Below are positions 48,276 through 50,498 of a stretch of 64,000 nt of DNA, in pieces. Within the stretch, counting starts at the first letter, position 1; each line of letters starts with the position of its first letter. A program made the position numbers and the translations under genes. The stretch spans positions 32,001 through 96,000 of the forward strand of contig CAWDOQ010000019.1 of the NCBI GenBank assembly GCA_963804085.1, written 5' to 3'. The stretch is from Chlamydiia bacterium. GTDB lineage: Bacteria > Chlamydiota > Chlamydiia > Chlamydiales > Rhabdochlamydiaceae. The notes beneath the pieces are model-generated. The model was not told the origin of the DNA, did not search any database, and saw only the letters and a list, made by a program, of their open reading frames with translations.

Positions 48276-50498
48276 TTAAAATACAATGCCTCTATTGATC
48301 AGGCCGAGAGGGTCTAGGGTTCTTTTTATTTCTTGGAATTTCCCGTAAACCTTCTCGCCAAAATATGCGCGATAATCGAAGTTTTCTGGAGTAATTTCAG
48401 CTTGGATGTATCTTCGGAAATTTGGGTCTATCAGCACGATCTTGTGAAACTCTTTCTCAAGATTTAAAAGCTCCTGTCTATCGAATCCTTCAGGCTTTTT
48501 TGGCAATCCCCAAACAGCACTTAGAACAAAATCCCCTGTGGACGGATAGAGAAGAGGTGGATTGAAATCAGTGCATTTGAAAGAAGCGCGGAAAAATTCA
48601 CAAGGGATCCATACATCTAAGTGTTCCTTCTCATATTTTCTAAGTAGAGATGCTGCTAAGCTTGCTTTGCTAATCGATGATATGAGAGAAAACCAACACA
48701 TTTTAAGCCGAAAGGGGTGTGTGTTTTTGACTCTTCCCTTGGTCCCCAGTGGATAGACCACTTGACCTCTAGGAACAATCTTGATTTTAGCCTTAGTAAA
48801 ATATCCCAATTGTCCCATAGAGCCAAATAGCCAAGGAAATAACTGATCATCTTTTTTACACAAAACAACCTGGCCCTCTGCTGTAACAAATTCTACCTCT
48901 TCAACTATGTTCCAAAAAGCATTATCACCACTGCCAAATCCAATACCCCCCGCAGAAATGAATCCGCCGAGGCTAGGCGCTGAATAGCTGCCATTATATA
49001 CTGTGAGTCGATAACCATATCTTGCAAGGTGCTCATTTAAATCCCAGACGTTTACACCAGCTTCGACAGTCACAGTATCTGCCTCTTCAAAACTATAGCT
49101 ATTCAGAAGATCGGAACGTATTAACAATTCGCCCTTTTTTGGAAGAGAAGATCCGTTGCAAGAGTGTCCATTTCCACGAATGCGCAGAGAAAGTTTATGT
49201 TGATAAGCCATCGAGATGATCTTGCAAACATCACTGCAGCTTTTTGGGAAAATTTCATAAAAAGATCCACTACAAGAACGGTATTCGCTAAAATCACTTA
49301 TTTTCTCTGAACGTTCTGCGATATAAGAAGAAGGAAAGAGCTGTAAGATCGGGTCATTTCGCGTCTTTTTTGACTGATCATTTATAGGTTTAGTAAGTAG
49401 AGGTTTTTGTGCAGGCATTTCGATAGCCAGGTGTCCATAAGACACATCTAAGTAGATCTTCGCTTTGATCTGTTGATGGCTTTCTGGATTGTATATGAAC
49501 TTGATATGGTGAATGTTTCTAATCACTTGAAGATAAGAGGTTGGATTTTTGCTTGAGACAGCGCTGTTTGGATAAAATACACTTTGATCCAGTGATTCAT
49601 AAAAACCTCCGATCCACGAGAGAGCTCCTTTTTGTTTTTCCGGGGTGGTGAATCCTTCATGCACCAGGAATTGCAAAAAGGCCTCCCATCTTTTTCTTCG
49701 TTCTGAAAATGTGAGGTCTGAAAGAAAACTGCATTCTATGCCCAGTTTCGATTGGATTTGTTCGGAAAGATCTATGTGGAGGACCACATGCGATATAAAT
49801 GGCGCTATCTTCTGTATAAAGTTGATCAATTCTTCTCTTTTGTGCAGGTAGCCAACCTTATCTAAAAAATCTCCCAGTGCCTTTCCAGAAGTGCTCAAAC
49901 TGTCAACACAGAGCCTCACACCCTGTCGGGTTCTGGGAAGCATAAAACCAACAAAGTTGATTTTGAGATTTTTAGATAGACATTCGTCACACACCTTTGA
50001 AAGTAGAGCAGCTGGTAGATCAGCGTCAATTTTTAAGAGTGAGAAAAATCCTCGGCAACATTTCACAAGATCTTTCACTTGTGGTCCAGGAAAATAGAGA
50101 TTAGGATCCGGAGGCCATTGTGAGGAACTCCCGACATCAAATTCTGTCCACATGAAATCTATATTTTCTTGCCAAAAAAAATCGTGTTCTTGCGCCTTTT
50201 GCAAAAACGCGAAATAAAGAGACCATAGCTCGCTTTTGCTTATCTCATGAGAAACTTCTCCTTTATGAAAGCTTTTGAGAAGAGAATATAAGTCGGCTAC
50301 AAATAGTGGCATTCTAATCGAAAGATCTACCCAATATTCATCTCCATCCAGTGGGCATTCATAGCCGTAAAAATTGCAATTCATTTTCGGAAGATGAGTG
50401 AGAAATTCTCGTAAACGTTGGATGGATTCATTACCTGCAAGAGCAAGCGGAAGATCCTGCAGTGTTTTTTCAATTATGAATTTTGCATCTAATTGCAT
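48276..50498 (-). CDS. Two-domain protein: putative prenyltransferase-like N-domain plus PCMH/VAO FAD-linked oxidase
   Basis: C-half has RGNGHS, SLGGFISAGGIG, GSMGQLG and KRTLDPLGLINRG (FAD_binding_4 type). N-half has YGYEC, WTEFD, GFMLPR, KLGIEC and HHIKF...KAKIYL; this assignment is by recalled similarity only. Confidence 0.7.
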   Translation of the reverse strand: MQLDAKFIIEKTLQDLPLALAGNESIQRLREFLTHLPKMNCNFYGYECPLDGDEYWVDLSIRMPLFVADLYSLLKSFHKGEVSHEISKSELWSLYFAFLQKAQEHDFFWQENIDFMWTEFDVGSSSQWPPDPNLYFPGPQVKDLVKCCRGFFSLLKIDADLPAALLSKVCDECLSKNLKINFVGFMLPRTRQGVRLCVDSLSTSGKALGDFLDKVGYLHKREELINFIQKIAPFISHVVLHIDLSEQIQSKLGIECSFLSDLTFSERRKRWEAFLQFLVHEGFTTPEKQKGALSWIGGFYESLDQSVFYPNSAVSSKNPTSYLQVIRNIHHIKFIYNPESHQQIKAKIYLDVSYGHLAIEMPAQKPLLTKPINDQSKKTRNDPILQLFPSSYIAERSEKISDFSEYRSCSGSFYEIFPKSCSDVCKIISMAYQHKLSLRIRGNGHSCNGSSLPKKGELLIRSDLLNSYSFEEADTVTVEAGVNVWDLNEHLARYGYRLTVYNGSYSAPSLGGFISAGGIGFGSGDNAFWNIVEEVEFVTAEGQVVLCKKDDQLFPWLFGSMGQLGYFTKAKIKIVPRGQVVYPLGTKGRVKNTHPFRLKMCWFSLISSISKASLAASLLRKYEKEHLDVWIPCEFFRASFKCTDFNPPLLYPSTGDFVLSAVWGLPKKPEGFDRQELLNLEKEFHKIVLIDPNFRRYIQAEITPENFDYRAYFGEKVYGKFQEIKRTLDPLGLINRGIVF

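Follow-up and report, generated by a model that had tools for sequence, protein, structure and literature searches.

A prenyltransferase-like domain fused to a compact flavin oxidase next to a lanthipeptide precursor gene in a Chlamydiia genome

Introduction

Leader-dependent ABBA prenyltransferases acting on lanthipeptides were first described in 2024–2025, and terpene cyclization is the sole follow-up chemistry in the literature surveyed. Here we analyzed a stretch of 64,000 nucleotides from a Chlamydiia bacterium (assembly GCA_963804085.1, contig CAWDOQ010000019.1, positions 32,001 to 96,000; termed the window in the following). It contains one long open reading frame (ORF) that combines a prenyltransferase-like N-terminal half (N-half) with a flavin oxidase as C-terminal half (C-half) and adjoins a gene for a precursor peptide with an NHLP leader. 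With a probability of roughly 60% we propose that the fusion is a bifunctional enzyme for the tailoring of a class II lanthipeptide, i.e., of a peptide made by ribosomes and modified after its translation (RiPP), which would prenylate its substrate, likely at Trp, and then oxidize it.

Two described enzymes are close to the fusion. MppC from Moorena producens PAL is a leader-dependent ABBA prenyltransferase which geranylates C5 of Trp in a LanM-cyclized, Nif11-led peptide (PMC12715784), and its cluster, mpp, additionally encodes a flavin halogenase, a terpene synthase as well as an oxygenase (PMC11791876). Compared by description, the fusion would resemble MppC in being a soluble ABBA-type protein from a class II lanthipeptide cluster whose precursor has a long and structured leader, and the context of MppC- and NctP-type prenyltransferases, a structured-leader precursor with a class II LanM adjoining, is found in the window. 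In contrast to the fusion, MppC stands alone, its leader is of the Nif11 type instead of the NHLP type and descriptions of it mention neither a fused nor a paired VAO oxidase. In the second enzyme, NctPC, a prenyltransferase is joined to a cyclase; Trp is geranylgeranylated and the attached chain subsequently cyclized (review PMC13290415). Again by description, NctPC and the window fusion share an ABBA barrel of low similarity to cyanobactin prenyltransferases and a C-terminal second enzyme. In NctPC this second enzyme processes the prenyl group installed on Trp, and the family of the N-half likewise has members with a cyclase domain of the squalene-hopene-cyclase (SHC) type (P0097, P0145). 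The partner in the window, however, is a VAO flavin oxidase and not a class II terpene cyclase, so that the follow-up chemistry would be redox chemistry instead of an acid-catalyzed cyclization.

The DMATS and indole ABBA enzymes MpnD, CdpNPT, CymD, FgaPT2 and 6-DMATS are 6–14% identical to the N-half, which has no PF11991 match, and they act on free Trp or small molecules and not on leader-bearing peptides. The cyanobactin proteins PagF, PatF and DciF have in common with the N-half that they are ABBA-fold peptide prenyltransferases of RiPP pathways. For PalQ and PalX of Paenibacillus alvei it is reported that Trp of a precursor with an NHLP leader is prenylated and that the NHLP domain enhances this reaction (PMC10853753); PalQ resembles trans-isoprenyl-diphosphate synthases (ComQ type) and differs from the N-half by its unrelated fold. 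The leader-dependent prenyltransferase class and its cyclase fusion are already known, and the fusion and conserved pairing with a VAO oxidase would be new. No prenyltransferase-VAO/BBE pairing in RiPPs was found in the literature covered, which did not include Hubrich et al. 2024 and the supplementary information of PMC12715784, where such clusters could be contained.

Architecture of the fusion protein

An annotation made earlier from the DNA letters and their ORF translations (the sequence-only reading) had described one ORF of 740 amino acids (aa) at 48276..50498 without naming its strand, had noted GHS and further VAO-family motifs in the C-half and had compared a string of N-half motifs with prenyltransferase-cyclase fusions, proposing that the cyclase is replaced here by an oxidase. 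This interpretation is supported by our analysis. The ORF, designated P0001, is uninterrupted and lies on the minus strand (Table 1); the plus-strand frame across 48276-50498 is riddled with stops. All N-half motifs could be located, namely GYEC (residues 45-48), WTEFD (117-121), GFMLPR (184-189), GIEC (253-256), HIK (331-333) and KIYL (347-350), and GHS (444-446) falls inside the match to FAD_binding_4 (PF01565, residues 416-547, E 1.5e-25), beyond which P0001 matched no Pfam family at E ≤ 1.

The search for proteins of the same architecture, which had been suggested together with the annotation, was carried out as a word-indexed search of 5.8 billion proteins for sequences of 407–1295 aa and yielded one further fusion, P0002 (754 aa), encoded on a Logan contig of 6199 bp and therewith derived from a separate data source. 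In BLASTP P0001 and P0002 shared 377 of 743 positions (51%) with 9 gap positions, and the alignment ran from the N-half through the linker into the C-half. Relatives of the N-half that stand alone stop at about residues 352–362 and those of the C-half start at about residues 381–390, hence the linker represents a clean domain boundary; the structural model of the N-half ends in a coil of lower confidence in this region. A scan of JGI metagenomes with the alignment of P0001 and P0002 gave 162 pattern matches and 0 relatives.

The sequence-only reading had itself named an indel that joins two separate genes as the event that would overturn it, and at least two frameshifts are present elsewhere in the nearby assembly. 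Nevertheless, such an artefact was rejected, since P0002, which stems from separate data, repeats this architecture over its whole length (51% identity, no more than 9 gap positions), the domain junction is clean, and the oxidase parts of the window protein and P0002 form a branch of their own with 100/100 support. We regard its chance as negligible and, judged by these alignments, the fusion of the prenyltransferase-like and the oxidase domain as genuine.

The N-half and its association with NHLP precursors

An exhaustive phmmer search of 1.84 billion representative proteins assigned 1072 proteins, most of them 330–390 aa long, to the N-half family at E ≤ 1e-3; a threshold of E ≤ 1e-10 was reached by 371 and one of E ≤ 1e-30 by eight. 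The N-half itself had 0 Pfam and 0 NCBIfam matches. Among 28 family members scanned with Pfam, 21 were without any family, one (P0023) had a single weak HPr-kinase match below the cut-off, and six were fusions: to FAD_binding_4 (P0002), to a methyltransferase (P0093), to a 2OG-Fe(II) oxygenase (P0105 and P0147), and to squalene-hopene-cyclase/prenyltransferase alpha-toroid domains (P0097 and P0145).

In an alignment of 123 family sequences six columns are invariant (E47, D121, R189, K333, K347 and Y349) and further residues are conserved to at least 90% (E119, G184, M186, G253 and H331). All of these lie within the motifs of the sequence-only reading, which are therefore no chance strings. P0001, to which the family is 20–34% identical, retains all six invariant and all 12 near-invariant columns. 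According to the predicted structure the conserved residues E47, E119, D121, R189, R195, H331, K333, K347 and Y349 would be positioned on or just after strands in i/i+2 patterns. In known ABBA enzymes a set of Arg, Lys, His, Tyr and acidic residues of this kind binds the diphosphate, Mg2+ and the acceptor.

In the AlphaFold2 model of the N-half (predicted local distance difference test, pLDDT, 93.6; predicted template modelling score, pTM, 0.91) two helices are followed by two strands in five successive rounds, which gives the five alpha-alpha-beta-beta repeats and the 10-stranded antiparallel barrel that characterize the superfamily. Foldseek against the PDB returned 68 matches at E ≤ 1e-3, and those listed were all aromatic prenyltransferases, including PriB, 6-DMATS, CdpNPT, NphB/Orf2, DMATS1, AmbP1/3, FunA, EpzP, FgaPT2 and NotF. 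The ABBA-type barrel, for which a fold comparison had been proposed as a check, was thus obtained, and the opposite outcome, a fold foreign to prenyltransferases, did not occur among the listed matches. By its model the fold resembles enzymes of the indole/DMATS type more closely than the prenyltransferases of cyanobactin pathways. ESM Atlas clusters carrying PF11991, PF11468 or PF19156 were listed at 0.88–0.89 only, which we take as a mere lead, and the absence of PF19156 matches from the genome of the window is uninformative because control genomes were likewise without a match. Based on model and conservation, the N-half is most likely a soluble ABBA-fold prenyltransferase of a large family lacking Pfam annotation.

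The precursor gene with its NHLP leader is located 8 nt from the fusion gene, a LanM gene lies within 2 kb, and precursor, LanM and a flavoprotein are all found within 5 kb. Moreover, the same genome encodes two stand-alone paralogues of the N-half (26–27% identity), each adjoining an NHLP precursor of its own (Table 1); one of the two precursor cores ends in ...GNEPLGYFDGVLHKLHNYPH and the other in ...GVTKGGYSVDPGCNWC, and no LanM was present in the 3.8–3.9 kb examined at either locus. In a survey of the phylum the N-half family was detected in five of 400 scored genomes, the genome of the window included (one further genome was unscored). The fused form was absent from the four other genomes. 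A hidden Markov model (HMM) built from the three precursors of the window's genome found an NHLP precursor beside all six family genes in these four genomes, so that with the own genome included 9/9 family loci of the phylum have an adjacent NHLP precursor. The N-half family is a RiPP family tied to NHLP precursors.

A compact VAO-type oxidase as C-half

The search for relatives of the C-half yielded 133 proteins of 282–444 aa at E ≤ 1e-5 with up to 44% identity, forming a clade of about 350–400 aa. PF01565 is their only precomputed Pfam domain and the few named ones are called "FAD-binding oxidoreductase" or similar. The C-half could be assigned to none of the named VAO subfamilies (sugar 1,4-lactone oxidase, GlcD, DprE1, BBE-like, CKX): It remained below every NCBIfam cut-off (best TIGR01678 with 58 bits vs 396.8; DprE1 19.5 vs 500) and matched none of the C-terminal Pfam domains BBE, Cytokin-bind and ALO. 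Sequence matches to VAO structures were confined to the FAD domain: galactonolactone dehydrogenase (GalDH, E 4.7e-11), flax cytokinin dehydrogenase (CKX, 1.2e-10) and xylitol oxidase (5e-10).

The FAD_binding_4 (PCMH) domain of the superfamily is accompanied in the C-half by a cap domain. The AlphaFold2 model based on 116 sequences (pLDDT 96.0, pTM 0.94) had tied best VIA-align scores with GalDH (30.7), DprE1 (30.6), CKX (30.1) and alditol oxidase (AldO, 29.2), whereby 306–331 of the 360 residues were covered. These chains, at 412–486 residues, are longer than the C-half and 17–20% identical to it. As modeled, the C-half is a VAO oxidase that is pared down yet complete; it belongs to the aldonolactone-oxidoreductase/DprE1/CKX/AldO group and has a clade of its own. 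H445 of the GHS motif is conserved to at least 90% in an alignment of 116 clade sequences (clade motif R-I-R-G-N-G-H-S-M-N-G). Flax CKX and alditol/xylitol oxidase have their GHS at the aligned position, whereas GalDH has Leu there. In CKX and AldO this His carries the covalent FAD, and by alignment the cofactor of the C-half is probably bound through His445 as well.

Co-occurrence of the oxidases with prenyltransferases

A scan with the oxidase alignment, in which each species was represented by one genome, led to 22 loci with stand-alone C-half relatives or fusions from at least nine named phyla, and the N-half family HMM was run over all six-frame ORFs of these loci. In 13 of the 22 a prenyltransferase is located beside the oxidase or fused to it, and nine of these contain a member of the N-half family. 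Seven loci have a strong match (E 1e-44 to 1e-85) near the oxidase, namely L014 (Pedobacter alluvionis), L015, L017 (Pseudovibrio denitrificans), L020, L024, L025 and L029; six of them carry an NHLP precursor and the seventh, L029, is a contig of 6.7 kb. The members in L032 and L013 are distant and were recognized by hhalign (96.6% over 325 and 94.7% over 311 columns). Prenyltransferases of other types occur as well: A protein of 1083 aa from an uncultured bacterium (L018) is a second, independent prenyltransferase-oxidase fusion with a UbiA membrane prenyltransferase domain, UbiA genes adjoin the oxidase in L027 and L030, and the adjacent gene of L034 (Kribbella) reaches the gathering score of Trp_DMAT.

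Four loci (L014, L015, L020 and L025) share a cassette of NHLP precursor, LanM, JmjC-type hydroxylase, prenyltransferase and oxidase, and L029, where the contig breaks off within LanM, has the same cassette minus the precursor; L024 was scanned for the prenyltransferase and oxidase genes only. The genes for prenyltransferase and oxidase mostly converge tail to tail. A maximum-likelihood tree of 23 oxidase sequences, which are related and not independent rows and from which L034 was omitted because of its split gene, contains a branch (98/99) that sets apart 15 rows: the window protein, P0002, nine N-half-linked and four unlinked oxidases. Within this group 11/15 rows are linked to the N-half family, and the other group of eight comprises all three UbiA-linked rows.

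All seven precursors at loci with prenyltransferase and oxidase contain Trp and represent three unrelated core types, compared with Trp in 2/8 cores at prenyltransferase-only loci. In P. denitrificans (L017) a radical SAM gene and an NHLP precursor are located between oxidase and prenyltransferase (Table 1). As this locus is without LanM, the prenyltransferase-oxidase pair is not restricted to lanthipeptides.

A core of the form ...SGW(S/G)S...ECTQC(G/S)NN(G/D)T(T/S)C(A/Q)PGPTE(E/D/G) is common to L014, L015, L020, L024 and L025, i.e., to Bacteroidota, Acidobacteriota and Pseudomonadota. Conserved core and cassette are both present in Pedobacter alluvionis DSM 19624 (L014), a named culture-collection strain.

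Proposed reaction sequence and alternative explanations

The folds of the two domains, the fusion itself, the NHLP association of the family and the linkage of prenyltransferase and oxidase genes are shown by the results above; which residue accepts the prenyl group, which donor is used, in what order the steps run and how the oxidation proceeds is inferred for the window fusion as follows. First, LanM would equip the adjoining precursor with thioether rings in its core, SGHCLPTTVSWGGGCI. The barrel domain would then recognize the NHLP leader and transfer a prenyl group from an allylic diphosphate to a nucleophilic side chain, most likely to the single Trp. Subsequently, the tethered oxidase would remove two electrons (a hydride) from the prenylated residue at a doubly activated allylic/benzylic carbon; alternatively, it might oxidize an alcohol placed there by the neighboring flavin monooxygenase, a task that JmjC enzymes could have in other cassettes. 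The residue would end up with a diene or a carbonyl, or it would be closed to a new ring. Finally, the leader would be cut off at an AG|SG site. CKX and DprE1 act on prenyl-bearing substrates and BBE-like enzymes on prenylated aromatics; oxidation of a prenyl group by the C-half would be analogous to CKX and DprE1, which are among its structural neighbors, and to BBE-like enzymes.

Several observations speak against a prenylating and oxidizing RiPP enzyme. For the prenyltransferase part, no prenyltransferase Pfam family matched the N-half at E ≤ 1 (Trp_DMAT, PF11991; PTase_Orf2, PF11468; DUF5838, PF19156), the profile of 123 family sequences matched no PDB chain except for a chance match at E 1.6, and hhalign of the family with the DMATS-type neighbor in L034 gave a probability of 2.7%, i.e., no relation. 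The pairing is optional, as only one of the nine prenyltransferase genes of this phylum is tied to an oxidase, and nine of the 22 oxidase loci are without a nearby prenyltransferase (L016, L019, L021, L022, L023, L026, L028, L031 and L033); hhalign of the N-half family with 18 neighboring ORFs in such loci gave at most 1.4%, compared with 96.6% for the positive control. Furthermore, the tied closest structures of the C-half include the sugar and alcohol oxidases GalDH, AldO and DprE1, so that the oxidized atom need not be part of the prenyl group. This last point leads to the main rival explanation, in which both domains are active and the oxidase spares the prenyl group, acting on an alcohol or amine elsewhere on the peptide, e.g., on a hydroxyl from the neighboring monooxygenase or a JmjC enzyme, and the fusion merely serves shared recruitment by the leader peptide. 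We consider an oxidation site elsewhere on the peptide unlikely, yet worth keeping in view. A catalytically dead ABBA domain which only binds leader or substrate for the oxidase would have a parallel in the non-prenylating ABBA protein PatF of cyanobactin pathways. It appears quite improbable, since the six invariant columns and the 12 near-invariant ones are all kept in P0001, as is the pattern for a conserved active site, and stand-alone members such as the paralogue L002 have the precursor as sole evident pathway partner.

A different objection concerns the state of the pathway. LanM of the window is split by a frameshift in a run of nine A residues, and the pathway may therefore be defective in this genome. 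Past the run ...ELKLLASLLIEPG... is read in the second frame, with which the C-terminal LanM ORF starts. The split may be due to an error of the assembly or to slippage, or the gene may be a true pseudogene. A GH3 glycosidase gene 3.5 kb away is frameshifted, too, with its expected continuation ...GLVISDALNMQAL... picked up in the next frame, and this second frameshift within about 3.7 kb of the first suggests indel errors of the assembly. Both frameshifts, together with the low GC content of the cluster region, as is typical of acquired DNA, would also be compatible with a decaying remnant whose fusion gene no longer yields a natural product. We hold such decay to be improbable: the 740-aa ORF, the precursor and the gene of the 441-aa flavoprotein are all intact, and two frameshifts at short runs in a draft assembly of 24 contigs fit assembly error equally well. 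In any case, decay would bear on the state of the pathway and not on the identity of the enzyme.

Beyond the window, at least seven other genomes, which belong to four phyla, have the prenyltransferase-oxidase pair as adjacent genes instead of a fusion, and the pair may represent an undescribed RiPP modification in which a lanthipeptide Trp is prenylated and the prenyl group is then dehydrogenated or cyclized by a minimal VAO flavoenzyme; the wider VAO clade, with its UbiA and DMATS partners, would consist of dedicated prenyl-group oxidases. This generalization is tentative, and we would rather expect it to need revision than to hold in full. If true, it would be the peptide-level counterpart of BBE-like/THCA-synthase chemistry on prenylated aromatics, and peptides from the three prenyltransferase/NHLP loci of the chlamydia-like host might act inside a eukaryotic host cell. 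The flavin-oxidase fusion and the gene pair recurring across phyla point to a redox route for the elaboration of prenylated peptides. Two families that lack annotation thereby receive a testable function, one with about 1000 prenyltransferase-like representatives without a Pfam model and one with at least 133 compact VAO proteins, and a single-polypeptide, leader-guided catalyst for prenylation and subsequent oxidation would be useful for lipidated macrocyclic peptides.

Gene neighborhood and host

Table 1. Coordinates of the features in the window and, where a locus or contig label precedes, in other sequences.
Feature	Position	Strand	Remarks
Fusion ORF P0001, 740 aa	48276..50498	-	stop codon 48276-48278 included; uninterrupted frame
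N-half, residues 1-358	49425..50498	-	predicted ABBA-fold prenyltransferase-like barrel, five alpha-alpha-beta-beta repeats
Linker, about residues 359-382	49353..49424	-	about 24 residues, poorly conserved; 5-residue gap in P0002
C-half, about residues 383-740	48279..49352	-	predicted compact VAO/PCMH-type FAD oxidase
G444-H445-S446	49161..49169	-	candidate covalent 8-alpha-histidyl-FAD site; clade conservation and alignment to flax CKX and alditol/xylitol oxidase
NHLP-leader precursor peptide, 105 aa	47950..48267	+	NCBIfam TIGR03793 leader_NHLP, E 1.5e-18, 66.4 bits vs cut-off 50.9
Predicted 16-residue core SGHCLPTTVSWGGGCI	48217..48264	+	after ...EKIAAG motif; 2 Cys, 4 Ser/Thr, 1 Trp, 1 His
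Flavin monooxygenase-like protein, 441 aa	46574..47899	+	Pfam FAD_binding_3, E 3.8e-7, Rossmann part only; upstream of precursor
LanM N-terminal part (dehydratase, DUF4135), 460 aa	45134..46516	-	TIGR03897 positions 3-428, E 1.2e-114
LanM C-terminal part (LanC-like cyclase), 502 aa	43636..45144	-	other frame; TIGR03897 positions 448-931, E 5.6e-113
A9 homopolymer, LanM frame break	45166..45174	-	read from sequence
GH3 (NagZ-like) glycosidase	40577-42200	+	1-nt frameshift at short G/C run, about 41495-41505
MORN-repeat protein	42700-43623
MazF/PemK-type toxin ORF	55168-55590	+	Pfam E 3.9e-15; about 4.7 kb from fusion gene, past hrcA-grpE-dnaK
F-box-like protein	55591-56913
Stand-alone prenyltransferase paralogue L002 (G000:C17)	984-2397		own NHLP precursor as only evident pathway partner
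Stand-alone prenyltransferase paralogue L003 (G000:C12)	535-3059		own NHLP precursor; also a methyltransferase
UbiA-oxidase fusion, 1083 aa, uncultured bacterium	L018:2375-5626	+	UbiA residues 474-712, FAD_binding_4 758-888
Pseudovibrio denitrificans locus	L017:8028-12837		oxidase and prenyltransferase flank radical SAM gene and NHLP precursor, core ...GSWFCCHTWGSEETSHG; TP_methylase-type gene next

The ATG of the precursor gene is preceded by a ggagg sequence, and the boundary of its core was placed by the AG/GG/GA motif in an alignment of 15 precursors, which makes the cleavage site a predicted one. Precursor and fusion genes are convergent with 8 nt between their stop codons (48265-48278). 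This gap leaves no room for a terminator, and the two transcripts would therefore overlap.

The class II LanM gene (43636-46516) is divergent from the gene of the 441-aa flavoprotein. The latter showed weak hydroxylase-type matches in NCBIfam, all below the cut-offs, and past the Rossmann motif (E 0.0056) no solved relative was found. A halogenase role of the SrpI/MppI type was considered for this protein and found no support.

The RiPP cluster (44000-50000) has a GC content of 39–42%, compared with 46–52% in its flanks (rseP, hrcA-grpE-dnaK), and this suggests, as far as base composition can tell, a horizontally acquired island. Among public sequencing runs, one DNA run of a soil metagenome shares 5% of the sampled words and no RNA run is listed. 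Three contigs of the soil run (151–191 bp, at least 99% identity) cover bits of the C-terminal LanM ORF and of the 441-aa gene only; none extends over the A9 run or the fusion ORF, and they are uninformative on frameshift, fusion and expression.

The genome of the window has a size of 2.1 Mb. Two polyprenyl synthase genes could supply the prenyl donor, and a C39 peptidase gene is encoded on another contig. Five matches to TLC ATP/ADP (nucleotide) transporters were obtained (G000:C19, C17, C15) and none in 14 control genomes. Together with the gene order hrcA-grpE-dnaK and the F-box-like and MORN-repeat proteins, these transporters suggest an obligate intracellular, chlamydia-like host, whose small genome holds a RiPP tailoring capacity. 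A strong terminator-like hairpin is located 3' of dnaK, immediately upstream of the fusion gene.

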